Virus record (IMG/VR): IMGVR_UViG_3300029825_000003
Span: 9,513-73,512 of that record
Length of the DNA: 64,000 nt
Source of the DNA: a virus
Direction: 5' to 3' (one strand)
The notes below the pieces were generated by a model. The model did no database searches. It was not told the origin of the DNA and was given only the letters and a program-made list of their open reading frames with translations. Both the position numbers and the translations under genes were made by a program. This document shows, piece after piece, positions 22,622 to 37,127 of the stretch; position 1 is the first letter of the stretch; each line of letters begins with the position of its first letter.

Positions 22622-22768
22622 ATGCCCCCTGAAGTATGCGGGAACTGTGAATTTTGGATTCGCGTAAACGTTCCCGAACAATTAATGGGAACCTGTTCAA
22701 AATATGAACGCAGGAAACACCGAGACGGTGTCTGTATAAATAAAAGAGCTGCAAAAAATGAATATTGA
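22622..22768 (+). CDS. Small Cys-rich protein (CGNCEFW...GTC...C)
   Basis: Read by hand; TAAATG coupling. Confidence 0.65.
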   Translation: MPPEVCGNCEFWIRVNVPEQLMGTCSKYERRKHRDGVCINKRAAKNEY

Positions 22769-23369: not shown

Positions 23370-23435
23370 AAAGAACTAAGTTTCCTATTAAATTATCAAT
23401 CTTAAATCTCTATTAACAGTATCCTAATAAATCAA

Positions 23436-23465
23436 GTCCGGCTATCAGTGGGGGAATAGTCGGAC
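23436..23465 (+). terminator. 10-bp hairpin in convergent intergenic region
   Basis: GTCCGGCTAT-N10-ATAGTCGGAC, G-U pair on plus strand, followed by T-rich tract. Confidence 0.4.
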
Positions 23466-23629
23466 ATTTCATCTGTTTTTCAGTAAAATATCAATCGCCT
23501 GAGTAAAAACCTATTCCATTTTGATATTTCCCTCGGCTCGATAATAAGCTTCATGGATTTTCAAAATTTCAACAGGCGTTTTATATCGACTTGCCGGAAG
23601 AAGATGCCGTTTTTCAATATCAATAAACC

Positions 23630-23980
23630 TTATTTCCCTTCCTCCTTCTTAGGGACAGTCTTAATTAATCTATTATTCCACGCAATACAATCATGTATCA
23701 TCTCTTTTGCCTTTTCCTCGTCAATCGTTCCGTCTTCACCAGGAGCTAACATCCTGAGATAATCAACGAGTTCGTCATCCATATTTAACTTCGTAAGCGC
23801 GTTCCCGTTCTGTTTTTTGACTGCGTGTATAATTTCTGAGGGGACTATCAATTTGGATAGCCAAATGTCAATATATCCCTTTTTCAAGAGATATCCTACA
23901 AATCCACTAATAGCAACCCCTACAAAAGCCCCACATTTCTCAAGAATTGCTATCGTGGCGTCATCAATTATAATAGACAT
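23630..23980 (-). CDS. Holin-like single-TM membrane protein
   Basis: GAFVGVAISGFVGYLLKKG TM; last gene of cassette following depolymerase. Confidence 0.55.
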   Translation of the reverse strand: MSIIIDDATIAILEKCGAFVGVAISGFVGYLLKKGYIDIWLSKLIVPSEIIHAVKKQNGNALTKLNMDDELVDYLRMLAPGEDGTIDEEKAKEMIHDCIAWNNRLIKTVPKKEEGK

Positions 23981-24055
23981 CTGTCCCTCATGCGACAGAC
24001 TGTCTTAAATACTGTCTCAACCTGGCCAATTTCAGTTTTAGAAATTCCACAATCA

Positions 24056-24370
24056 TTAATAATTCTCCTCGATCAAGTTTTTCAGGTCAGTAAAAACAGG
24101 ATTACTCAAGATCTCTTTCCCGTCTGCAATCAGTTTCTGGGCTTCCTCGTTTGAGATGTCCCCGTCGCTTGCAGCAAGTTCAAGGGAATTTAGTAGGCTA
24201 CCAAGATTTGAAAGGAGTCCGAGAATAAGCCCGCTCTCTTCTACAAACAATTTTATAGAGTTTTCAGCAAGTCGAAGCTGTGGGGAAAGTTGTTTTAGTT
24301 TCAGAGCAAGTACAGCGGAGGCCGTTGCGAAAAGTACAGTTAAAAGTCCTATAAAAGGTTGCGCGTCCAT
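24056..24370 (-). CDS. Holin-like membrane protein (N-terminal TM)
   Basis: FIGLLTVLFATASAVLALKLK; C-terminal AASDGDISNEEAQKLI pattern typical of small phage holin-like proteins. Confidence 0.55.
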   Translation of the reverse strand: MDAQPFIGLLTVLFATASAVLALKLKQLSPQLRLAENSIKLFVEESGLILGLLSNLGSLLNSLELAASDGDISNEEAQKLIADGKEILSNPVFTDLKNLIEENY

Positions 24371-24446
24371 ATATACACCTCATAAAAAAAATATGATATT
24401 GTTAATAAAAAAGGAAAATTGATTAGAGTCTCTTGACCAATATTTT

Positions 24447-24989
24447 TCAAACCTTCAAATAGATTTCCATTACTCTTCCCCCAATATGGGCTTTGAGGTC
24501 TTCTGAGAGGTTCATTGCGTCCTGTTCAGAGGTACAAATAATTTGAATACGTGCAGGAGTTCCAACAGGCATCTCTTCTTCTACAGGAGGTTTACCTGGG
24601 TCTACGACAGGATCTGTGACAACGTCTTCATACGAATAAGTGTAAGTACACAATTTCATCAGTGCTTTTGCAGTTCCTGACGTTTTAAGCCGCCATCGAA
24701 GAACCACATCCTTTCCGGCACCCACAAAAATATCAACAGCTTTACTTTTCTGCTGATAACTCGTTTTCCCTTCTTCCCATGTTGCAAGAGGTTCGGCTTT
24801 CCCGTCAAGAGTTATCCAAGCGGTAGCAGTTACCCCGAAGGCAGCCGCCAAAGAGCAACCTATGGAAGAAATTCTTATTTTCTTGCCTTCTTGCCCTCGA
24901 ATGGTTACGGTTTTTTGTATGCAGCCCGTCTTTGCACAGTCTTTGTATAGTGTTGTGTACACATTTCTAACATCAGTTACTATGGTCAT
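24447..24989 (-). CDS. Jelly-roll (carbohydrate-binding-like) protein homologous to two repeats in the Dit protein
   Basis: KKIRISSIGCSLAAAFGVTATAW aligns with HIWRIDRVFCQLRTAQTGQTAW and KKYRLDQFACLLATA in 29277..34100. Confidence 0.65.
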   Translation of the reverse strand: MTIVTDVRNVYTTLYKDCAKTGCIQKTVTIRGQEGKKIRISSIGCSLAAAFGVTATAWITLDGKAEPLATWEEGKTSYQQKSKAVDIFVGAGKDVVLRWRLKTSGTAKALMKLCTYTYSYEDVVTDPVVDPGKPPVEEEMPVGTPARIQIICTSEQDAMNLSEDLKAHIGGRVMEIYLKV

Positions 24990-26224
24990 TATGCACGCCT
25001 CAATATTGTTCTTCTAGGATACTTTTCCTTGATAGTCTTAAGCTCATTTTCCGAACAATCAAACATCAAAAAAGCCGGATTTTCAATTACTGGCTCAGGT
25101 TTTTCAACAACATTATAAAGATCTCTGACATTTCCAGAATATGAATTCCCCTGAGCTATAACTTTTGTATATTTTTGTGGTTTCAAATTACACAATGCAG
25201 TACCGGAAGCAGTGCCTACCGTATTACTTCTTTTAGTCCCATTGAAAATATTATTTTTCACAACTGCTGAATATCCTGAACCGGAAGCAGACACCGAAAC
25301 GTATTCCCCAAACAAAACACCATACCCGAGACATCGACTAAATGTGTTTTGTTCGACCACTACATCATCCCAGCCCTCACATGTTATTCCGCCTACACCA
25401 GGGATATGATGATAATCTGAATCCATATTTCCACAGTTCGAAAATAGATTATTTCTAACTGTCAACCCCGACGCTGCCGATACGGATTTGTTAGACGTCC
25501 CGATAATCCAGATCCCCGGCCCCCATGTGTCATGCACGTCATTATTTTCTATTATAATATTTCTAGAGGACATTCCAGATGTACTATTTTCTACCTGCAT
25601 CCCAGGACTCGATGCCCGCCCTCCATTTTTGTTGATAATATAGTTCCCATGCACATGTCCGCCGTCAACGTGTCGGAGCCTGCATCCTGAATTTGTCCGG
25701 AGTTCCACGTAATTATCAAAGACGTCGATGTTTTGGCCTTTATCGATGTATACCGCATCATGCCCACACCGAACGATTTTATTTTTATAATAGTTAACAT
25801 TTTTTACATTTGTCAGGCGTGCGCCGTCCCCCATACTGTCATGGATATGACAATCATGTATTGAGATGCCGGATGCTCCTGAGAGTCCTATGAAATTGTG
25901 AAATCCTTTTCCGAGAATTGTAGTTTGATTATTTGAATTTCCATCAAATGTCAATCCTGAAAACTCAAACCCCGTTCCTCCATAGACTTTAGAACCGATA
26001 ACGGGAGTCATCGAGGGAAAAATGGAAGTAGAAATGTGATCTTTTAGCCGGAAGACTGTATTATTTCCGGAGAGTTTCACACCAGGGAAGAATTTAACAG
26101 GGGATGCAATTTCAATATCATTTGTGGAAAAAATAAATTCAGTAGGCGTGTTGCCTGCGGTATTAATGAGATTTTGTAATTTTTGTGAGGAATCAATAGA
26201 AGAACCTACAGAGACGGTTTTCAT
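24989..26224 (-). CDS. Right-handed beta-helix glycosidase, disaggregatase-like (putative lysin)
   Basis: FDGN...GKGFHN, IHDSMGDG, CGHD, LRTNSG, HDTWGPGIW, VGGI match my recollection of Methanosarcina disaggregatase-family catalytic domains; no signal peptide. Confidence 0.75.
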   Translation of the reverse strand: MKTVSVGSSIDSSQKLQNLINTAGNTPTEFIFSTNDIEIASPVKFFPGVKLSGNNTVFRLKDHISTSIFPSMTPVIGSKVYGGTGFEFSGLTFDGNSNNQTTILGKGFHNFIGLSGASGISIHDCHIHDSMGDGARLTNVKNVNYYKNKIVRCGHDAVYIDKGQNIDVFDNYVELRTNSGCRLRHVDGGHVHGNYIINKNGGRASSPGMQVENSTSGMSSRNIIIENNDVHDTWGPGIWIIGTSNKSVSAASGLTVRNNLFSNCGNMDSDYHHIPGVGGITCEGWDDVVVEQNTFSRCLGYGVLFGEYVSVSASGSGYSAVVKNNIFNGTKRSNTVGTASGTALCNLKPQKYTKVIAQGNSYSGNVRDLYNVVEKPEPVIENPAFLMFDCSENELKTIKEKYPRRTILRRA

Positions 26225-26355
26225 ATTAAGAAGTAACACGAATGAGTATAAAAGAGAAAATTAAATTATTTAGTATAGTTTATAAAAATAATAAGAGAGT
26301 TAAATAGTTAAAGGTTGGTCATTGTTAAATACTGTAATGTACTATAATAGTACAT

Positions 26356-26508
26356 ATGAGTACAAAAAATATTATCCAAGTCGATTGTGGAGAATGTAAT
26401 ATACAATCACTTGGAAGGATTTCGATAAAGAAATATATGAAAAGGCATGGATTGAAAGATGGTGATACTGTAAAGGTGATACTTGAAGTTAAGGAAAGTG
26501 AAAAATAA
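26356..26508 (+). CDS. AbrB/MazE-like regulator (50 aa)
   Basis: GRISIKKYMKRHGLKDGDTVKVILE; operator TGTACTAT-A-ATAGTACA at 26338-26354 directly before a leaderless ATG. Confidence 0.7.
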   Translation: MSTKNIIQVDCGECNIQSLGRISIKKYMKRHGLKDGDTVKVILEVKESEK

Positions 26509-26900
26509 TGGAAGAAAACGAAGTCGCTATAGCTTTTCCATTAGATGATTACCATGTAGAAAAAATAAATAAACTCTGGAAAGCAAATAAAATTAACTAC
26601 GCTGATTTCAAATTCATTCCTATTCAGTACAATTCTATCATGGGTGAATATCTAAATGAATATGATATCCAACTTGAAACTAATGTGCCTCATATAGTCC
26701 TTGTTATACGACTGTATGATAATGTAAATCATGATAAAATTCAAAAATGGTTTGAATCTGAAGGTTTCAAGATAGTAGGGATCAGTGAGACAATTACATG
26801 CGCTGAATGGCACAATGGGATTAAATTTGAACAAGTTTATGCAACTGAAACTACAAAATATAAACATACAAACACTATCAAAAGAAGAGACATACAATGA
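26508..26900 (+). CDS. Hypothetical protein
   Basis: ORF track; TAATG coupling. Confidence 0.7.
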   Translation: MEENEVAIAFPLDDYHVEKINKLWKANKINYADFKFIPIQYNSIMGEYLNEYDIQLETNVPHIVLVIRLYDNVNHDKIQKWFESEGFKIVGISETITCAEWHNGIKFEQVYATETTKYKHTNTIKRRDIQ

Positions 26901-27271
26901 AATGCGAATCATGCCAAACCGAATTTACCGGAGAAGCCTGTCCAAATTGTGGACTCAAACCGCATAAACAACGCTGTAAAAGCTGTTCTAAAAAGTTTTA
27001 CTCTAGTTATCTAAAAGGAGGCTTCTGTCCTGATTGTTTTGGAATGTTAAAAGACGTCCCATATAAAAGCCCTCTTCTTGCGTTTGTGTTTTCAATTATA
27101 CCCGGAGCTGGTCATGTTTATTTAGGAATGAAAGAACGAGGGGCAGGTTGTTTTCTGCTGTTTTGTATTTCATTCTTGACCTTGATAGGATGGATTTTTA
27201 TAATTTTGTTTTCTGGAATTGATGCTTATATTTTAGCAAATCAAATGAATAGGTTGGATGGATATGAATGA
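26897..27271 (+). CDS. TM2-domain membrane protein with N-terminal zinc ribbons
   Basis: YKSPLLAFVFSIIPGAGHVYLG; CESC...CPNC, CKSC...CPDC. Confidence 0.8.
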   Translation: MKCESCQTEFTGEACPNCGLKPHKQRCKSCSKKFYSSYLKGGFCPDCFGMLKDVPYKSPLLAFVFSIIPGAGHVYLGMKERGAGCFLLFCISFLTLIGWIFIILFSGIDAYILANQMNRLDGYE

Positions 27272-27446
27272 AGATAATAAAAGAAATGCAATTGTACTAG
27301 ATATCAAACCAAAGAACTCTAAGTTTTTGGATGCCCTGTTACAAGTGGATGGGTGCGATAACCCTCTTTGGATTGAAGTGATTCCAACTGTTAAAGTTGG
27401 AGATTCCGTTTTTGTAAGCGAGTATTCAGTTAAAAAAATCAATTAA
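27258..27446 (+). CDS. Small OB-fold-like hypothetical protein
   Basis: ORF track; TVKVGDSVFV. Confidence 0.5.
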   Translation: MDMNEDNKRNAIVLDIKPKNSKFLDALLQVDGCDNPLWIEVIPTVKVGDSVFVSEYSVKKIN

Positions 27447-27457
27447 CGAGAAGAGAT

Positions 27458-27931
27458 TTGATAACTATGACACAACTATACATTGATGGAATTCGCATTA
27501 ATGGATTGACATACGATATTGGAATACCTGACATGCGAGAACGTAAAGCTTCTTTTAGTTATTATCTAATTTCTGAAGATGAAGGACAGATACTTCTTGA
27601 TAAGGCTATCTATAACGAGAATGAAGTCCATGAGTACTTTTTATCAAACGATTGCCAAACATGGGAATTTCAGGGAGAAGTAAGTAAGTACAATTTAATT
27701 CACGATGAGGTAAACCTTCCAATGGGCTTTTACGTGATGTTTATTGAAGTGGAGTTATGCGGTAAATTTAGGTATACCCGAAATGAAAAGCTTGTAATTG
27801 AAAGGGATTTTACAAATCTGTGGAAGAAAGGGGAGCAAGAGGCAGCTAAAATTTATGAAGAAATAATTAAGAAAAAAGAGTTTGAACAAAACGCATTGCC
27901 TAAAACATATGATGTAAATTTAATAAACTGA
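27458..27931 (+). CDS. Hypothetical protein; in-frame zinc ribbon follows its TGA
   Basis: ORF track; frame stays open to TAA 28070-28072. Confidence 0.7.
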   Translation: MITMTQLYIDGIRINGLTYDIGIPDMRERKASFSYYLISEDEGQILLDKAIYNENEVHEYFLSNDCQTWEFQGEVSKYNLIHDEVNLPMGFYVMFIEVELCGKFRYTRNEKLVIERDFTNLWKKGEQEAAKIYEEIIKKKEFEQNALPKTYDVNLIN

Positions 27932-28119: not shown

Positions 28120-29274
28120 TTATTTACACTGATTTTTCTTTGCTGTCTTAACCGCTTTTGAAACCTGCCCGATATAATCATAAGCGGTCTTTCTCACTTT
28201 TCCCAAATCAAGGGACGTTGTATAATCCCCACCATCTATTAAATGAGATATCCTTTTCACAGTCAAATTAGTATGAATATAATCTCCGTTTAGATCAATC
28301 GAAGGAAACTTGCATTGAACAAGGTCGCATAATTCGACCTCGGGGGTTCCCATTAAAACAGCCTGTCCTGAGACTTCAGGAGTTTTGGCTTCGGTTAGTA
28401 GTCCAGTTGCTATAGTTTTACATTGGGGGGTACTTTTCACCCATGTCTGAGTCTCAACAGCCGCCCGCCGCCCATAGAGCGTGCTTAACGCGGTATCCTC
28501 ATCGTAATCAGTATACTGAGAGCCACCCGATGGCGTATCCCCATTCACTCTATAATAAGTTCTTACTCCTGTTCCTGCTATTTCAAAGTCTGCACTTAAT
28601 ACTCTCGGAGTGCCTTCAATTATTTTGTACTTATCTGTGGCAGTCGCGGGAAATGCTTTCCATTGAATATATCGAGTTGATAAATTACCATTTAGATAAG
28701 TAGGAACAATTTTTATAGCCCAATCATAACTCGCAACTTTCTCCATATCTGCAAAAAGATCTGACATATAAGTTTGATTTGCAGTAGTATCATACTGTGG
28801 AAACGTTTTTCCAGTATCAGCATAACCAGAGTCATAAGTCAACCTTGTAAGATATTTTTGAGCATAATAAGATAAAACCGTCTTTGCGTCCTGAGATGTA
28901 TGTGTGTAAGTCTCTGTTATGATAGCTGTTTCCGCTTCTGCTTCATGTCCTTGAGCATATATAGTGACATTATTATTATTGTCGGAATACTCGCAGGATA
29001 GATCCATTATTCGACCTTGGAAGATATCCTGCCAGATCGTTTTTTCATTGGGATTCATTTTTATTGAAACTTGCAACCTCACAATATCATCGAATCTTAA
29101 CTGAGAAATGTATGTAGACGTGGACCCTATTATATTGCTGGCAATTTCAATTTCAGCATATGAAATAGAAAAAGGATACGACTGTTGAGTGCTTGCCCTT
29201 AGCACAGAAGGATAATATTTTTCATGAGTTGTAGGCTTTTCAATCACTAAACGAGTTTGAACCCACCTGATCAT
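28120..29274 (-). CDS. Baseplate hub / Tal-like protein (gp27 fold)
   Basis: TMP-Dit-Tal position; IFQGRI, G-x-P-x-V-ELCDLV, TSLDLG C-terminal motif. Confidence 0.75.
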   Translation of the reverse strand: MIRWVQTRLVIEKPTTHEKYYPSVLRASTQQSYPFSISYAEIEIASNIIGSTSTYISQLRFDDIVRLQVSIKMNPNEKTIWQDIFQGRIMDLSCEYSDNNNNVTIYAQGHEAEAETAIITETYTHTSQDAKTVLSYYAQKYLTRLTYDSGYADTGKTFPQYDTTANQTYMSDLFADMEKVASYDWAIKIVPTYLNGNLSTRYIQWKAFPATATDKYKIIEGTPRVLSADFEIAGTGVRTYYRVNGDTPSGGSQYTDYDEDTALSTLYGRRAAVETQTWVKSTPQCKTIATGLLTEAKTPEVSGQAVLMGTPEVELCDLVQCKFPSIDLNGDYIHTNLTVKRISHLIDGGDYTTSLDLGKVRKTAYDYIGQVSKAVKTAKKNQCK

Positions 29275-29276
29275 GA

Positions 29277-32200
29277 TTACACCAACATGTCGGCATCTCT
29301 ATATTTCAGTGTCACAATTACGCTAGACGTTGAATCAACAACCGCCCCGAATGTGTTTACCTGCCCTTTGAATATTTTTGGATGTTCAGCGTCTATCGTT
29401 ACAAGGCTTGCATACATGAAAATAGAGTTTATCCTGAGTGTATCAGTTCCACCACTCGCAATTTTTAGATGGAATTTTGTAAGACCGTTCAAGATGCAAT
29501 CAGTTCCACTGTTCAAGAGCCTATAAGCCTGAGCGTTGCTGATATCCGTTGTTGTATTTCCATCGAGAGGATACCAAGTTCCGGGGCTTCCCGCGTTATC
29601 TTTAGCTATATAGATAGTCGGTGCTCCTGACATAACATTTAGGACAATGTAAGGAATCCCGGTGATTGGGTATTTTGTGTCGAATTTATAAATCAAATAC
29701 CCTGTAGCATTAAACAAGAGCATCTTATAATCATCATAATAAGTAACATAAGCAGAATCGGTAACTGTATATTCATATGCTGTATCTGCAAAATTTTCAC
29801 TATACTGATAACTTCCCGTTCCATCTGCGTTTATTGTAATTTTACAGCCAGGTTTCAACTCGTTACAAACTTCCATCCGAGTAAGAGTATCAGCCTCGTT
29901 ATAAATTGAAATAGCAGAGGATGTCACGGAAGGGATAATTTCAGTGTAAGTAAAAGCAAAATTATCCATATATGCTCTGCCGGCTGTACTTGAAGTTCTC
30001 ATATATACTTTGATTGTAACAGTTTCATTCGTTGCTGAATAAATTTCACTATTATATTTTCTTGTAGCATACGAGGAAAGCCTAGTAGTAGACGAGAATA
30101 CAACAACCTGCGTTTCCGCACCTGAATTAATGGAAGCGGCTTTTACCGTCACTCTTGCATATGCCGTTAATCCTGAAACGTTAGCAGTTGCCAATAAACA
30201 AGCAAATTGGTCAAGTCTATATTTTTTTCCGTCTGTGAGTGCAGGGAGAACATAAGTAAACTCTAGAGAATATGAAGTCAGATATTCAGAATGAATATCT
30301 GGATCTGTATACGTTTTTGTATCTCCATCGGTTTCATTCGTTCCGCTTTTTGAGGTGATTGCAGTCACTTCAACATCAGGGATAATATCTACATGTCCGG
30401 TAGTTGTGATGTCCTGCCCTGTAGTACCAAGTTCAAAATCGGAAGCTCTTTCAATCAAAACGTCATCGCAATATACCTTCGCTCCTGAATTTAGAGTGTC
30501 AACTCCATGAATCCGGATATAGGCATCGACAGGGGCAGTATCAAATCTTATTGTATCCTGCAATTGGGAATATTCACAGTCGGCATCCCAGAGAAGCTGA
30601 GTAATTATCGAATTTCCAGAATAGATATCAACAGATAATTGACCATGAGTTAAACCGGTTACTGCTCCCCATGCACTGACCACGTAAGAAACCCCTGGAT
30701 CAAACATAATGTACTGAGTTGAACGCCCGATGTCTTCTGTAAGTCCATCCCCTGATATCTCTAACGCATATAAACCGTCATGTGCAACTGAATCACTTCT
30801 AGTCTGCCCTTCGCTTTCAAGAGTCCAGCTAGCCGGGGTTTGAATGCCTCCATAATCAGAGGAGGTCATTATCCTGTTATTTGATCCTGTAGAACTTACT
30901 GATACAAACTGATTAAGATCAGAAGAATAACAGACAGAATTCCAGTTATTGTCGGCAGGAGTGTCACAGAGAACCCAATTAGCCGCATCATTTGACCTCA
31001 TTGCTCTGTTTCCTGTACCCGACTTCGCAACACATACCAAAACCGAGTCTTCAGGAGACCATGTAAGCCCCTGCCATGCGTTGTAGGTATATGAGACAGT
31101 TGCTCCACCTGCTCCATCGAATTCAGTTACTTCATATCCTATAAGGGTAGCATACGCCCTATAAGACGAATTCGAGGATTTCATATAACACTGAATAGTT
31201 ATTGCCTCATTTGCAGCCGTTTCAAATGTTACATCCAGTGTTTTGTCTTCATACGTCTGAGAGACAGAAGAGAATTCAGCCAGAACTGTTTCTGTTTTTG
31301 TTGCGGTTGTTGCGGTAATTTTTATCCATGCTGTTTGTCCGGTCTGTGCGGTCCTTAACTGGCAGAATACCCGGTCAATTCTCCAAATGTGATTATTTGT
31401 AAGGGCTGCAACTGAGAGAGTAGGCCCACCAGGATATTGAGTAGAATAAGCTGTGACTCCAGAACTATATACCCATCCTTCGGTTGTTGTAGATGTCGTT
31501 GTAGCTACATCAGTTCCAGTTCCAGGGGTAACTATAGACCCACATACAGGAGTTGTCTGCAAGGTCCATTCATCACCATCAGGAGAAGTTACAATCTGCT
31601 GAGTTCCATCTTCAGTACATGCAACAAAAAGACCAAGTGTTTCAGCCCATACAACACTCTTAAACTTCTGAGCAGGAGAAGGTACAGAAGAAGCTAAATT
31701 CCAAACTTCACCATAGTCAACAGAACTCATTATATTTCCATCATAGGAAACCGCAACCAATTTTAGGAGGGATTGTGAGTAACAAACTGAAACCCAAGTG
31801 TTTGCATCTTGGGTATACGTTGCAATTGACCACGTTACTCCACCATCATCTGAATACATGGCTCTGCCAGTACCTGATGATGCAACCGCGACATAACGGT
31901 AGACAAGATCAACGTCGTCCCTAACATAACATACAGAATTCCAGTTGTTATCGGCAGGCGTGGTTCTCGCAGTCCATGTTATTCCATCGTCTGAAGTCAT
32001 GCACCTGTTTCCAGACCCTGAAGAAGATACTGCAACCCATCTTCCCGGCAAGAGGTTCCCACCATCAAGCCCGATGGAATACCCCCACGCAAGCCCCCTC
32101 CAATTATTATTACAATTTGTTGCGCTTGTGAGTCCAGAAGGAACTGACCATGTATCACCGTCAGAGGATATCTGAACGCCATTATTGCTCCCACCCGAAG

Positions 32201-34100
32201 CAACCGCGCAATATTTTGCAAGCTCTCTTGACCATCTCACACAAGTCCATTCAATATCCGCTACACTCGTAGCAGTTGCCCAGGTCATCTCGCTTGAAGT
32301 AGCCCAATCCTCAAAAGAAGGATTTTTCAAGAGATTACCAGCGTAAGTATCATCTGCGGACCACGTACTCGATCCATATACATGCCTGCCCCTTACCTTC
32401 TGAGAGGCACTTTCTTTGTGAGGTTTTTCCATTTGGTATAAAATAGAATAAGGCTTTGCATTCTCAGGGACATCGGTTGTAAGTCTCAATTTAGAACTAT
32501 GGTCAACCGTGAGACCCCTGCACAGTGTACCCGCATAAGGACCGCCTAATTCTAGCTTAGACTGACCTCTTGAAGTGTCGTACCATGCAGCCATAACCTC
32601 ATCTAATTCATCAATAGAAAACGCAAAACAGTCTATGACAAGCCCCGTCCCCTTGAACCCAAAGTCTGTTAAGTTATCTCCTTCTATGCCCGGAGCTTTC
32701 TTTTGTCCTACTGATTTACCACCGTCAACGGCTAATTCTTGCCAATTGAATTTTACCCCGTTTATGTAGCCCTGTCTTGGTTCAGTTGAATCATAATAAT
32801 TGGTTAATTCCTCTTGAATAATCCGTATCGGAGGGATATATCTTGTAGTAGGGGTTGTTGTCCCCCCGGTTGAAGATCCTCCTGAATATGCACCGTTTGA
32901 GGTTGTAGAAGTTGAGATTGGAGTAACTTGATAGTAGTCTCCTGTAACATTTCCGCTTGAATAATTTTCTTCTGCGTATACAGCCATCTTGGATGGAACC
33001 ATATTCAAGATTCCGTATCCGCTAACAGGAAGCATACGAGTGGGATCTGTTGCGAGAGTAACCTTCGTATTCAGAATATTGTTATTATTTACCTGCATTG
33101 TGCAGCCTGAAGCAATGGAATCGAGAACAACAATTCCAGCATTATAACAGCCTGAAATTGTATTATATTCGATAGTAAGCCCATTACCCCACTTCCAGAG
33201 ACCAATACCGCCGTTATATTTGATGTTATGCATCCATCCACACGCGGTTATTGTATTATTCCAAATATGAACAGTCTGTGCGGTTGTCCCGGCTGCTCCA
33301 TAGGCATCCATCAGGAGAATGCCCACGCCTGCTCCGTCAGTTATTGTATTTTCGTAAATGTTAATATTTTGAGTAAGACGTGTTAAACCGTATGAAGCAG
33401 GTTCGTTCCCTATCTGAATTGCTCCGTTCCCGTTTGCCCCGGTTCCTGCGTATTTGTGAGTGTCATTATCATGGATGTTAATATTTTGACAGTTGTCTAG
33501 TCTCACACATGAATTACACTTCTGAACGATGTCATTAGTATAGATATCTCCACCAACCACATCTATGAAGAATACGCCCTCATGTCCCATTACGTCAACG
33601 TCATTATAATAATATTTGATATTTTCACCATGAGTAAGCCTCAATCCATCCCCTAAACTGTCATGGATTTTCATATTATAGACGGAAATATTCTTCACCG
33701 GACTACTCGCAGTGCCGGTTATCTGGATACAATTATAATAGGCATCTCCCTCAGATTCCGTTTGATTGGCTCTGTTTCCATCAATCTCGAAACCGTGAAT
33801 TTTTATATTGACGGAGGCATGACCATTACCTTCATACTGCCTAATGATTCCAACCATTGAAGCCCAACCAGCATTATTTTTCAGGCGAAGGCAGGCAGTA
33901 GAATCACCGGTTAATTCAGTATTATCCCCTAGGAGGACAGAGGTTTGAATATCGTAAGTACATGGACCTTTTAGGTATACAGTACTTCCAGGATTAGCGA
34001 CAGCCGCCGCTAGTGCAGAGTTTATTTCAGATTGGTCATTTGTCCCGTCTACAATGTATGTAGCCCCTGAACCTGAAGGACCTACCGTGTAAGTAGTCAT
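29277..34100 (-). CDS. Evolved distal tail (Dit-like) protein with N-terminal disaggregatase-like beta-helix and nested CBM, BNR-propeller and jelly-roll domains
   Basis: Directly after TMP; DGTNDQSEINSAL...VYLKGPCTY; NLLKNPSFEDW; ADNNWNSVCY repeats; Dit-type end HPKIFKGQVN...VTLKYR. Confidence 0.75.
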   Translation of the reverse strand: MTTYTVGPSGSGATYIVDGTNDQSEINSALAAAVANPGSTVYLKGPCTYDIQTSVLLGDNTELTGDSTACLRLKNNAGWASMVGIIRQYEGNGHASVNIKIHGFEIDGNRANQTESEGDAYYNCIQITGTASSPVKNISVYNMKIHDSLGDGLRLTHGENIKYYYNDVDVMGHEGVFFIDVVGGDIYTNDIVQKCNSCVRLDNCQNINIHDNDTHKYAGTGANGNGAIQIGNEPASYGLTRLTQNINIYENTITDGAGVGILLMDAYGAAGTTAQTVHIWNNTITACGWMHNIKYNGGIGLWKWGNGLTIEYNTISGCYNAGIVVLDSIASGCTMQVNNNNILNTKVTLATDPTRMLPVSGYGILNMVPSKMAVYAEENYSSGNVTGDYYQVTPISTSTTSNGAYSGGSSTGGTTTPTTRYIPPIRIIQEELTNYYDSTEPRQGYINGVKFNWQELAVDGGKSVGQKKAPGIEGDNLTDFGFKGTGLVIDCFAFSIDELDEVMAAWYDTSRGQSKLELGGPYAGTLCRGLTVDHSSKLRLTTDVPENAKPYSILYQMEKPHKESASQKVRGRHVYGSSTWSADDTYAGNLLKNPSFEDWATSSEMTWATATSVADIEWTCVRWSRELAKYCAVASGGSNNGVQISSDGDTWSVPSGLTSATNCNNNWRGLAWGYSIGLDGGNLLPGRWVAVSSSGSGNRCMTSDDGITWTARTTPADNNWNSVCYVRDDVDLVYRYVAVASSGTGRAMYSDDGGVTWSIATYTQDANTWVSVCYSQSLLKLVAVSYDGNIMSSVDYGEVWNLASSVPSPAQKFKSVVWAETLGLFVACTEDGTQQIVTSPDGDEWTLQTTPVCGSIVTPGTGTDVATTTSTTTEGWVYSSGVTAYSTQYPGGPTLSVAALTNNHIWRIDRVFCQLRTAQTGQTAWIKITATTATKTETVLAEFSSVSQTYEDKTLDVTFETAANEAITIQCYMKSSNSSYRAYATLIGYEVTEFDGAGGATVSYTYNAWQGLTWSPEDSVLVCVAKSGTGNRAMRSNDAANWVLCDTPADNNWNSVCYSSDLNQFVSVSSTGSNNRIMTSSDYGGIQTPASWTLESEGQTRSDSVAHDGLYALEISGDGLTEDIGRSTQYIMFDPGVSYVVSAWGAVTGLTHGQLSVDIYSGNSIITQLLWDADCEYSQLQDTIRFDTAPVDAYIRIHGVDTLNSGAKVYCDDVLIERASDFELGTTGQDITTTGHVDIIPDVEVTAITSKSGTNETDGDTKTYTDPDIHSEYLTSYSLEFTYVLPALTDGKKYRLDQFACLLATANVSGLTAYARVTVKAASINSGAETQVVVFSSTTRLSSYATRKYNSEIYSATNETVTIKVYMRTSSTAGRAYMDNFAFTYTEIIPSVTSSAISIYNEADTLTRMEVCNELKPGCKITINADGTGSYQYSENFADTAYEYTVTDSAYVTYYDDYKMLLFNATGYLIYKFDTKYPITGIPYIVLNVMSGAPTIYIAKDNAGSPGTWYPLDGNTTTDISNAQAYRLLNSGTDCILNGLTKFHLKIASGGTDTLRINSIFMYASLVTIDAEHPKIFKGQVNTFGAVVDSTSSVIVTLKYRDADMLV

Positions 34101-37100
34101 TTAAACCGCCGATTTTGTTTTAGTGGTTGAGGTTGATGTACCGTAATTGTTGACTGTGTTAACTCTATTATTGTTGTAAACCGTCATGTTTGCTTTTCTA
34201 GAAGCTGCTTCCCAATCTGTGTAACCATACACACTGCTCTTGTTGCTCCCTGAAGATTTAGAACTTGAAGAACTCCCTACTTCCATAAGTTTTGAAATTG
34301 TACTCTTAGCCTGGTTATAGACATCTACAAGTTTGTTGTAGACCCCACCAAGTCCTGAAATGGTTGTGGAGAACGAGAATCCTCCTAACGTGGAAAATGT
34401 ACTATTAGCATCCTTTCCTTTCTTATCAGCATCAAGGGTTTTTGTTCCTACAGTGCCGAGATTTCCAATAATACCCCCGAATGGAAGCCCGTTAGTAGTG
34501 CCAAAAGTAGAATTTAGAGTGCCTGCCTTTCCCGTATCATCCTGAGTATTAGAGCCAACTGTTGTTAGATTCCCCTGAATTGTGGAAAATGGAAGTGTGT
34601 TAGTGGTCCCAAAAGTAGAATTGAGTATTTCGGCTTTGGCAGTGTCGTCATACTCTAGTGTTCCTAAATTTGTAAGATTCCCGTCAATTGTTGTGAATGG
34701 AGTTGCATTTACATTATCAAGGGACTGCTTAAATAAATCTGCTTGGTTGGCTGCGTCTTTTTCTACGATAGTCATTCCAACTACTTCACCATTAACAACA
34801 GAAAACGAGACAGTACCAGCGCGGTTAAGTGCTTCTTCCCATGTGATCACGCTATCATTAGCAGTATTCACGTTTCCGTCTACAGTTGTAATTTGCCCGT
34901 TAAGGTTGTCTAATTTTGTATTATCAAGAACGACTACATCATTTCCCATATCCTTGATAAGTTTGTCAAGAGTTCCAGATTCGAGTTGAGCATCTGTTAA
35001 ACCATCTGTCAGGATTGTAATTGCTCCCCTGGTTGTATCAAAAGTAACTGCACCCATGCCTTCAAGTTTTGTAATTGCTCCATCTGCTGAAACTTTGACA
35101 AGTTCGTTATTATCATTTAGGATGATTAATTCATCATTAAGTGTCCTGATACCTCTTCTGAGGTCGTCCACGTCAACACCGGAAGTAAAAGATATTCCTG
35201 CTGTAGTTTTCGTTTGAACATCCTGCATTAAACTCTGAACAGCTTCCTGATATTTTGTAGCCGTCTCTGTCATTGAGTTAGTAACTTCATCATTTGCTGC
35301 CACAACATCATCCGACATTTCCCAAGCGTATTTACTCCACCGGGAATATGCATCTCCGGCAATTTCAGTAGTTCCATCTACAGAATCCCCTGCATCACCT
35401 GTGGAGAGTTCTAATTTCTTCGCGGCTTCTTCGTAGAAATCCGCAGATTCGTGGACGTTCTGAACGCCTTCAGACCATTTTGTTTTTATTGAATCCCATG
35501 CAGTACCGACAGCAGAAACCGCGCCGCTTAAACCTAGATCTTCAGCTATTCCTGAGAGTGTTTCTTTGAATCCGTCTATATATCCAGAGATATCCGAGAT
35601 AGCTTCGCTTATAGTTCCTGAAAGACCATACCAGACAACCCTACCCATATCATAAAGGAGATCAAACGCATCAGATACTAATCCGGTTTTTTCTTCGATG
35701 TATAGTAGAGCGACCCCTACAGCTACCGCAGGACCGGCAAAACTAATAAATCCTGCAACTACTCCAGATAAAGTCAGATCCAAAGCACCGAGAACAACCC
35801 CTACCCCATCTATAAGAATTCCAAAAGCACCGAGAGCAGTAACTACAGTTAGCCCGATTGTTGCCAGCCCTGCAAAAGCAATAACTGTTTTCTGAACCCA
35901 ATCAGGGAGCAGAGAATAAGCAGTTGATAATTCTGTAATCACCTTTACCATAGGTTTTAAGAAAAATGCAACATCTTCACCAATAGAGATTTTTAAATTT
36001 TCAAATGCTGCATTAAGCTCCCTTACTGCACCACCGAGACCCCCCTGCATCTCATCTGTCATTTGCTCCATGTAGCCGACATTATTCTCTAATTCGGCTG
36101 TGTTTTCTCGGAGTGATTGAGTGCCGGCTGTGATAATAGAGTACATCATAGGTCCGGCTCTCTGACCAAAAATAGTAACAGCGTCATTTAAAGTAAGCTG
36201 TTTATTATGAAGAACATCAATTACCTCATAGAGGTCTTTATTTGTGAGGTTTATATCATTCGCAGTAAGATTATATTTTGCTAAAGCATTTACAGCCGCG
36301 TTTGTGGGGCTGATCATCTGAACAAAAGCCTGTCTGAAATTAGTTCCTGCGGTAGTTCCCCGGATACCTGCATCCGCAGCAGCCATCATCAAAGCAGTTG
36401 TTTCTTCAAGGGAAATATTAAGAGGAGCAGCAGCTTGAGCCGCGTATTTTAGAGCAAATGCAAATTCTGAAATTTCGGCTGTAGATTCATTAGCACCCTG
36501 AGCAATGACATCCCCTATATGACCCATATCCTGAGCAGTCAGGTTATAGTTTGTCATTATGGCAGTCATGGTTTTTACAGACGTGCCTAAATCTGTAGCT
36601 CCCGCTCTCGCTAGAGCCATAACCGCAGGAAGCCCGGAATAAATTTCGTTTACAGATAGTCCAGCCTGAGCAGCTAAAACCATAGCGTTAGCCGTTTCCG
36701 TAGCCGTATAACCCATATCTGTGCCGGCTGTTCTTGCGAAAGAAGAAAGCGCCTTAAAATCCTCTTCAGATGCTCCGATAGCGGCTGAAACTCTCCTCAT
36801 AGCATCGTCAAAATCCATGAATGTACTTGTTGCTTCTGAAAACCCAGAAACAAGTTTACCCGTTGCAATTCCTGATATTGCCGTTTTAACGATGCCCATC
36901 TGAGAACAGAGGGACTGTGCTTTTGTAGCAAACCCGGAAAATGAATTTCCTAAGCTTGAAAGCCCATTTGAAATAGAAGATGTGAATGAATTTCCTATAG
37001 ATTTACCTATGTTAGATATCTTAGTTCCAGCAGAAGAAAAAGCCGAGGTGATACCAGCGAGATCTGAAGTAATAGTACTTCTTAATCCTACGGTTGCATA

Positions 37101-37127
37101 AATTGAACCTACATTCGTCTCGCCCAT
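34101..37127 (-). CDS. Tail tape measure protein
   Basis: TP901-type core (FDDAMRRVSA, ADAGIRGTTAGTNFR); 1008 aa. Confidence 0.93.
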   Translation of the reverse strand: MGETNVGSIYATVGLRSTITSDLAGITSAFSSAGTKISNIGKSIGNSFTSSISNGLSSLGNSFSGFATKAQSLCSQMGIVKTAISGIATGKLVSGFSEATSTFMDFDDAMRRVSAAIGASEEDFKALSSFARTAGTDMGYTATETANAMVLAAQAGLSVNEIYSGLPAVMALARAGATDLGTSVKTMTAIMTNYNLTAQDMGHIGDVIAQGANESTAEISEFAFALKYAAQAAAPLNISLEETTALMMAAADAGIRGTTAGTNFRQAFVQMISPTNAAVNALAKYNLTANDINLTNKDLYEVIDVLHNKQLTLNDAVTIFGQRAGPMMYSIITAGTQSLRENTAELENNVGYMEQMTDEMQGGLGGAVRELNAAFENLKISIGEDVAFFLKPMVKVITELSTAYSLLPDWVQKTVIAFAGLATIGLTVVTALGAFGILIDGVGVVLGALDLTLSGVVAGFISFAGPAVAVGVALLYIEEKTGLVSDAFDLLYDMGRVVWYGLSGTISEAISDISGYIDGFKETLSGIAEDLGLSGAVSAVGTAWDSIKTKWSEGVQNVHESADFYEEAAKKLELSTGDAGDSVDGTTEIAGDAYSRWSKYAWEMSDDVVAANDEVTNSMTETATKYQEAVQSLMQDVQTKTTAGISFTSGVDVDDLRRGIRTLNDELIILNDNNELVKVSADGAITKLEGMGAVTFDTTRGAITILTDGLTDAQLESGTLDKLIKDMGNDVVVLDNTKLDNLNGQITTVDGNVNTANDSVITWEEALNRAGTVSFSVVNGEVVGMTIVEKDAANQADLFKQSLDNVNATPFTTIDGNLTNLGTLEYDDTAKAEILNSTFGTTNTLPFSTIQGNLTTVGSNTQDDTGKAGTLNSTFGTTNGLPFGGIIGNLGTVGTKTLDADKKGKDANSTFSTLGGFSFSTTISGLGGVYNKLVDVYNQAKSTISKLMEVGSSSSSKSSGSNKSSVYGYTDWEAASRKANMTVYNNNRVNTVNNYGTSTSTTKTKSAV
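34340..34720 (-). repeat. About three ~36-aa tandem repeats near the TMP C-terminus
   Basis: PF(T/S/G)-x-I-x-GNL...(L/A)NSTF(G/S)T units. Confidence 0.7.

Follow-up and report, generated by a model that had tools for sequence, protein, structure and literature searches.

How do tailed viruses break out of archaeal cells that are embedded in a polysaccharide matrix? The question is raised by four genes at positions 23630-26224 of a 64,000-nucleotide stretch of viral DNA (hereafter the window), which covers bases 9513-73512 of the 73,512-bp record IMGVR_UViG_3300029825_000003 in IMG/VR, complete by CheckV. The record comes from sludge and digester metagenomes and represents a head-tailed virus of methane-producing, Methanosarcina-type archaea; its genome encodes an MCM helicase, a large terminase, and capsid, scaffold and tape measure proteins. 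Exit of tailed archaeal viruses from their hosts is largely unknown, and a 2024 review notes that holin genes of archaeal viruses remain elusive and that pseudomurein endoisopeptidases are the only known exit enzymes (PMC10791045). Many digesters and landfills are dominated by Methanosarcina, whose cells grow enclosed in methanochondroitin, a matrix that protects them against viral attack (PMC12369344).

The reading we favor, and to which we give about an even chance of being correct, is that these four genes, transcribed on their own, serve a tailed virus of Methanosarcina-type archaea as an exit cassette that resembles holin/endolysin systems and acts on methanochondroitin. We regard the cassette as the best current candidate for the break-out of such viruses from matrix-embedded hosts, and as a conserved, compact and directly testable one. 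The four open reading frames (ORFs) that a first-pass annotation of the sequence had placed in this region are all present and co-directional:

24989..26224, minus strand: p411, 411 residues, a signal-less right-handed beta-helix enzyme and candidate matrix depolymerase
24992..25075, minus strand: C-terminal module of p411, about 28 residues after a proline-rich linker, with a hydrophobic strand, a conserved cysteine, a short helix and a basic-ended strand
24447..24989, minus strand: p180, a jelly-roll domain resembling carbohydrate-binding modules (CBM) and tumor necrosis factor (TNF), followed by a proline-rich linker and a C-terminal module; candidate binding subunit
24056..24370, minus strand: p104, one N-terminal membrane helix followed by a helical, acidic tail; candidate for disrupting the membrane in the manner of a holin
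23630..23980, minus strand: p116, one N-terminal membrane helix and a conserved soluble domain of about 80 residues; second candidate membrane protein

Since all four have homologues in other virus contigs, we consider the genes real. The four-gene arrangement itself recurs in diverged viruses, as is expected of a functional module.

The p411 enzyme and the p180 slot

The resemblance of p411 to Methanosarcina disaggregatase, which the first-pass annotation had proposed from motifs, proved to be genuine homology on the joint evidence of Pfam, BLAST and conserved polar residues. In Pfam, p411 matches Disaggr_assoc (PF08480) with an E-value of 4e-23 and 82.8 bits against a gathering cut-off of 22.6, and Beta_helix (PF13229) with an E-value of 1e-17. 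The metagenome-assembled genome (MAG) of an ‘uncultured Methanosarcinales archaeon’, which hosts a related provirus, carries eight cellular PF08480 genes scoring 240-300 bits, and p411 aligns with their products at 29-35% identity with E-values down to 3e-46. Residues D133, H155, D/E156, R176, N178 and R182 are identical or conservatively replaced in p411, two viral paralogues and the eight cellular proteins. A hydrophobic signal or anchor is found at the N-terminus of all eight cellular proteins and is missing from p411, whose N-terminus is hydrophilic (best 19-residue Kyte-Doolittle mean 0.86), in keeping with its initial description as signal-less. An alternative upstream start, a GTG at position 26239, is possible; orthologues begin at ATG. 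Judged by its sequence, p411 is a diverged, signal-less member of the disaggregatase-related family, with methanochondroitin as its presumed substrate.

Structure modelling, suggested at the outset as a check alongside profile searches, returned a confident beta-helix for p411 (AlphaFold2, predicted local distance difference test (pLDDT) 91.6). The top structural matches of the model are the A-modules of AlgE4 and AlgE6 (Z 39, root-mean-square deviation (rmsd) 2.0-2.1 Å over 331-333 residues), followed by phi29 gp12 (Z 35), alginate epimerase/lyases, the RbmB lyase, GH28 polygalacturonases and tailspikes. Based on its matches to AlgE4/AlgE6, lyases and GH28 enzymes, the fold of p411 therefore belongs with enzymes that act on polyuronates. 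A sequence search of the PDB with the p411 profile gave nothing useful, and a Pfam search found Disaggr_repeat (DNRLRE/CBM96) modules in neither p411 nor p180. The C-terminal module of p411 is kept in about 20 orthologues, with moderate model confidence in this region (pLDDT 62-82).

The p411 stop codon and the p180 start codon overlap in the sequence TAATG, and p180 is predicted to be translationally coupled to p411. Its initial description as a jelly-roll protein was borne out at the level of prediction: in the AlphaFold2 model (pLDDT 81), residues 1-123 form a jelly-roll, followed by a disordered proline-rich linker and, at the C-terminus, a helix. CBM36, CBM6/35, Pgp3, TNF-like lectins and the Bd1399 fiber tip match the jelly-roll with Z of 9-10, scores that barely exceed a background Z of 7-8; CBM36 (Z 9.2-9.7, rmsd about 2.5 Å) does no better than TNF-like lectins and fiber tips. 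No Pfam family matches p180. A hydrophobic stretch at residues 43-61 was considered as a membrane helix and rejected, as it forms beta-strands of the jelly-roll in the model. Residues 27-122 of p180 are homologous to two internal domains of the viral tail-tip protein (E-values 1e-6 to 1e-3), and the same binding fold is thus used on the tail and in the cassette. These internal jelly-rolls lie at residues ~890-990 and ~1290-1386 of the tail-tip protein.

In other viruses (denoted below by locus numbers L004 to L045) the second position of the cassette may be filled differently. In L004 and L010, a Disaggr_repeat/CBM96 protein abuts the p411 orthologue (E-values 2e-81 and 2e-74). CBM96 (DNRLRE) is a polyuronate-binding module that was first noted in archaeal disaggregatases (PMC9971899). 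Both kinds of second-slot protein, p180-type and CBM96-type, end in the same C-terminal module of ~35 residues after a proline-rich linker. Hidden Markov models (HMMs) of the p411-orthologue module and the second-slot module find each other reciprocally and in the right place at marginal E-values of 0.03-0.04 (2150 ORFs), which is suggestive of homology between the C-terminal modules of p411 and p180. In our reading, the second slot holds an exchangeable binding subunit of a split enzyme, and p411 and p180 would associate through these modules; the functional analogy of p180 with a binding subunit rests on its slot exchange with CBM96 proteins. A complex prediction for p411 and p180 scored 0.26 against a mark of 0.32, and was counted neither for nor against binding. 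A further beta-helix protein of 276 residues (Pfam Beta_helix, weak GH28) follows the binding-subunit gene at L004:12069-12899 and L006:2328-3158; it is absent from the window and lacks the C-terminal module.

Small membrane proteins and gene linkage

Downstream of the enzyme genes, p104 and p116 each have one hydrophobic helix by Kyte-Doolittle prediction, as annotated: residues 5-23 in p104 (2.13) and residues 10-28 in p116 (1.79). The tail of p104 has 79 residues (6 K+R, 13 D+E) and that of p116 has 84, rich in charged residues; Shine-Dalgarno (SD)-like motifs precede both genes (GAGGTG for p104 and GAGG for p116). Basic residues after the N-terminal helix predict an N-out/C-in topology for both. 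On hydropathy, both resemble holins in architecture: they are small and have one helix, followed by a charged, hydrophilic C-terminal region. Neither has any Pfam match, searches of PADLOC, NCBIfam and PHROGs found nothing for small proteins of these types, and the ESM Atlas returned no usable match for p116 and only sub-threshold leads for p104. Homologues of p116 fall into 14 clusters, with 55-72% identity in the soluble domain.

The linkage of these genes to the depolymerase can be followed in relatives, whose gene orders are as follows (numbers are residues; Disaggr denotes the disaggregatase-related gene):

L043: 443 Disaggr, 183 p180-type, 111 p104-type, 112 p116-type, in the order of the window
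L044: 477 Disaggr, 102 p104-type, 117 p116-type, integrase
L045: 458 Disaggr, 190 p180-type, several small genes, 95 p104-type, 116 p116-type
L018: 404 Disaggr, p104-type 114, p116-type 112
L024: p116-type, then A8-type one-helix protein

Homologues of p104 (L018, L043, L044, L045) always adjoin a p116 homologue, so that the pair is adjacent in five of five viruses. The p116 gene is downstream of a free-standing Disaggr_assoc gene in all six of its contexts, where the depolymerases are only 33-55% identical. More generally, the 2.5 kb that follow a depolymerase gene are enriched in small hydrophobic-helix ORFs (18/37 versus 52/321, Fisher p 2e-5), in a crude test whose loci are partly related. 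In temperate relatives, the cassette block sits at the end of the late genes beside the integrase. Lysis modules of temperate siphoviruses usually occupy this same place, at the late-gene end next to the integrase.

A third type of one-helix protein, A8-type, takes the place of p104 beside p116 in L024, and is found in the cassette position in L006, L010, L013-16 and L039, often after a two-helix protein of 55-72 residues. The latter proteins (L010:10051-10224, L013:7645-7863, L016:9711-9914, L039:5826-5993) form hairpins like class II holins and sit between the binding-subunit gene and the A8-type gene; there are none in this window. Profile-profile comparisons among p104, p116 and A8-type were not significant (probabilities of 1.6-5%); the three have a short motif in common, G-x-I-S/D-x-E-E-A, and weak HMM or BLAST matches (E-values 0.005-0.07). 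They may be analogous or possibly distantly related. Among 1.84 billion representatives, about 50 clusters belong to the A8-type family. Two of its genes lie between large terminase and portal-like genes, at L036:6001-6330 in Methanosarcina acetivorans C2A (AE010299.1) and at L035:1498-1830 (minus strand) in the Methanosarcinales MAG provirus. Presence in the model strain C2A offers a genetically tractable place to study the family.

Two other kinds of gene were noted near the cassette. A cysteine-rich mini-protein of 47-68 residues (C-x-x-C ... G-x-C) is encoded near the depolymerase cassette in many relatives (L006:3516-3722, L011:9310-9453, L018:5829-5984, L024:4015-4179, L045:7444-7638), and a similar 48-residue ORF lies at 22622-22768 (plus strand) in the window. 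At L004:12984-13514, in the space between cassette and integrase of the MAG provirus, are genes for a DUF2683 protein and an 86-residue partner that may be a toxin-antitoxin pair.

A proposed exit role and its rivals

The genomic setting of the free-standing enzyme includes these features:

34101-37127: tape measure protein, directly before the tail-tip protein
29277-34100, minus strand: tail-tip protein, 1607 residues, with its own N-terminal disaggregatase-like beta-helix (PF08480 E-value 1.4e-13, residues 245-396)
28120-29274: tail protein, 384 residues, last of the tail genes
26356-27931, plus strand: block of five small genes, 1.6 kb, opposite to the cassette and separating it from the last tail gene
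26225-26355: divergent intergenic region, A/T-rich with TATA-like boxes (sequence read directly)
G000:C1:986-3274 (L001), outside the window, minus strand: third paralogue, 762 residues, signal-like segment at the N-terminus, membrane helix at the C-terminus

The first-pass annotation placed the cassette after the tail genes. It does follow them, though not directly, as the 1.6-kb block on the opposite strand intervenes. This block, together with a divergent intergenic region on one side of the cassette and a convergent one on the other, makes the cassette its own transcription unit, for which 26225-26355 is the putative promoter. No SD motif lies 5′ of the p411 ATG, so that a leaderless cassette transcript is conceivable. 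Within the opposite-strand block, 26897-27271 (plus strand) encodes a 124-residue protein with an N-terminal cysteine-rich zinc-ribbon region, two C-terminal hydrophobic helices and a weak DUF6677 match (E-value 0.0025), which could be another membrane player. DNA nearly identical to window positions 23400-26400 occurs in sludge, anaerobic-digester and landfill metagenomes from 9 studies (2021-2025); none of the runs listed for it is RNA.

In total, the genome encodes three PF08480 proteins: p411, the N-terminus of the tail-tip protein and the 762-residue protein outside the window. The last would be a virus-encoded, surface-anchored enzyme. The tail-tip protein, with orthologues in L004 and L010, is likely the entry depolymerase. 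With one paralogue fused to the tail tip, free-standing p411 is therefore not needed for entry. In L008, L013/15, L020/21 and L039, too, one copy is linked to the tail and another stands free in a unit of its own, which suggests a tail-tip copy for entry and a free-standing copy for exit.

The analysis establishes to which family p411 belongs and how it folds, assigns p180 to a fold class, predicts the membrane helices, finds the gene linkage conserved and sets p411 apart from its cellular homologues, which bear signals; the substrate, timing, membrane disruption, p411-p180 association and order of events we infer to be as follows. Having no export signal, p411, a polyuronate-active beta-helix depolymerase, would build up in the cytoplasm. 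Its start/stop overlap would keep p180 in a fixed ratio, supplying a carbohydrate-binding jelly-roll; in relatives this part would fall to the Disaggr_repeat/CBM96 module, which in cellular disaggregatases belongs to the same chain. Meanwhile p104 and p116 would insert in the membrane and, at the end of infection, compromise it and perhaps the surface layer (S-layer). Released p411 would then digest the methanochondroitin around the cell and the aggregate, freeing virions, while at entry the tail-tip copy of the same enzyme family would do the reverse. In aggregates, the matrix gives Methanosarcina cells mechanical protection, and single cells, which have only an S-layer, are fragile. A virus of such a host would therefore profit from a matrix-removing enzyme once the membrane has been breached.

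Several observations weigh against an exit role. Digestion of the matrix does not by itself lyse a cell. For this reason the earlier label of a holin-endolysin analogue is only partly apt: a signal-less enzyme does parallel a holin-dependent endolysin, as its signal-bearing cellular homologues parallel secreted autolysins, but the membrane and the S-layer need to be breached besides methanochondroitin. Orthologues of p411 in L004, L008, L011, L019 and L020 have no downstream membrane-protein gene. No holin family in Pfam, PHROGs or NCBIfam matches p104, p116 or A8-type at E-values up to 0.1; holin function is not excluded by this, because holins are very diverse. Conservation in p116 is much stronger in the soluble domain than in the membrane helix, an unusual pattern for a holin, and in the M. 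acetivorans and MAG proviruses the A8-type gene is far from any depolymerase. Beta-helix depolymerases are, moreover, classically virion tailspikes, and the jelly-roll of p180 is also part of the tail-tip protein.

These last two points lead to what we consider the strongest competing explanation, a rather unlikely one in our estimate, in which p411 and p180 are a second, virion-attached tailspike-like depolymerase and its receptor-binding head, anchored to the baseplate or tail by the C-terminal module, and the downstream membrane proteins are a separate matter, holins in their own right or something else. The beta-helix fold is common to many tailspikes and phi29 gp12, p411 has a ‘tail spike’ match in PHROGs (E-value 1e-10), and p180 resembles fiber-tip and TNF-like trimeric heads besides being homologous to the tail-tip inserts. 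The block comes after the tail genes, virion proteins also lack signal peptides, and the conserved C-terminal module is docking-like and unfolded in monomer models. No structural protein of this virus or its relatives, however, contains the module. The alignment of the p411 model with AlgE4 starts at residue 2-3 with a helix cap, leaving no N-terminal anchor domain, and p411 has 411 residues compared with 570-900 for typical tailspike matches. The tail already bears its own depolymerase, and the cassette is a separate transcription unit, with opposite-strand genes between it and the tail operon here and in L008, L039, L043 and L044.

A role without lysis seems improbable to us. Here release or export of the enzyme, in infected cells or in lysogens, would serve to disperse host aggregates, with p104 and p116 as an export or anchoring device, and the outcome would be exposure of new host cells or the spread of lysogens. 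Aggregation does protect inner Methanosarcina cells from virus (PMC12369344), and Methanosarcina plasmids carry disaggregatase-related genes that have been proposed to alter aggregation (bioRxiv 10.64898/2026.10.06.756670). The conserved soluble domain of p116 suggests a specific partner, and in L044 the block lies beside the integrase, where conversion genes also sit; yet lysis is the better fit for non-integrated relatives, where the block is linked to the late, structural part of the genome. The signal-bearing, membrane-anchored third paralogue cuts both ways, as it would be a surface enzyme of the virus itself and would already be there to fill such a role. No known export route uses proteins of this kind. 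That the linkage means nothing, p411 having come from the host as a moron and the small ORFs encoding unconnected membrane proteins (superinfection-exclusion factors, for example), we hold to be very unlikely, for although the small proteins have no family assignment and gene content downstream of p411 orthologues varies, both the p104-p116 pair after such diverged depolymerases and the coupling of p411 to the second slot are conserved.

We also entertain, as speculative and improbable, a more elaborate arrangement. In it, the p116 and p104/A8-type families would be the long-sought holin- or pyramid-like exit proteins with which tailed viruses of S-layered methanogens breach the membrane and S-layer, and the modules of p411 and p180 would dock to their conserved cytoplasmic domains. 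The release complex would thus be assembled in advance and tethered to the membrane, and at lysis it would shoot the depolymerase into the methanochondroitin matrix. If true, this would be a lysis system built for an envelope that has neither murein nor pseudomurein.

Relation to known systems

The first-pass annotation had taken this for a lysis system of a type not known to have been characterized. In the collection of papers searched, none describes such a cassette and nothing links disaggregatase or methanochondroitin degradation to viruses. GenBank phage records contained no p411 homologue. The cassette is a candidate source of a novel kind of matrix depolymerase encoded by viruses, which might be used to disperse Methanosarcina aggregates in genetics or process control, and of two new families of small membrane proteins across Methanosarcinales viruses, including the M. 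acetivorans C2A provirus.

Among the closest known proteins are the cellular Methanosarcina disaggregatases (PF08480 plus PF06848 Disaggr_repeat/CBM96-DNRLRE), which have the same beta-helix family and the GDG, GHD and R-x-N motifs in common with p411. The likely common substrate is the uronic-acid matrix of the host, and viral relatives also pair catalytic and Disaggr_repeat genes. There are also differences: p411 is virus-encoded, lies beside small membrane proteins, lacks a signal peptide, is 29-35% identical and scores 83 bits compared with 240-300 bits. The viral binding module is a separate polypeptide, here a different jelly-roll, and p411 has an additional C-terminal module.

By fold, the best end-to-end match of p411 is to the A-modules of the mannuronan C-5 epimerases AlgE4 and AlgE6, at 16-17% identity. 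Both families act on polyuronates, with no detectable sequence-profile match between them, and p411 may be a hydrolase, a lyase or an epimerase. Tailspike and capsule depolymerases, and phi29 gp12, are likewise right-handed beta-helices acting on surface polysaccharide, and the tail-tip paralogue of this virus is of that kind. Unlike tailspikes, p411 has no N-terminal virion anchor, is free-standing and is separately transcribed.

Among methanogen viruses, PeiW, PeiP and PeiR of Methanobacteriales viruses are the only wall-degrading exit enzymes described, and how those enzymes cross the membrane is also unknown (PMC10791045). These peptidases act on pseudomurein in a different host envelope, are unrelated to p411 in fold and chemistry, and have no linked membrane proteins identified. 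On the membrane side, PVAP, the pyramid-forming exit protein of Sulfolobales viruses (SIRV2 P98 / STIV C92), has a mass of roughly 10 kDa and consists of an N-terminal membrane helix and a cytoplasmic helical region, an architecture similar to that of p104 and p116.

A further comparison is with the holin-endolysin cassettes of bacteriophages and with PlyC, a two-gene lysin with a catalytic and a binding subunit. As in these, the gene of a signal-less enzyme against a wall polymer has genes of small, hydrophilic-tailed membrane proteins for neighbors, the block lies at the late-gene end and next to the integrase in temperate relatives, and catalytic and binding functions are modular. In contrast, the target would be methanochondroitin instead of murein, a beta-helix polysaccharide depolymerase serves as the enzyme, the membrane-protein genes come after those of the enzyme, no holin family is matched, and membrane and S-layer would be breached separately. 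By analogy, we see the cassette as working like a holin-endolysin module whose enzyme is split like the two-gene lysins, built from proteins that match no known endolysin or holin family.

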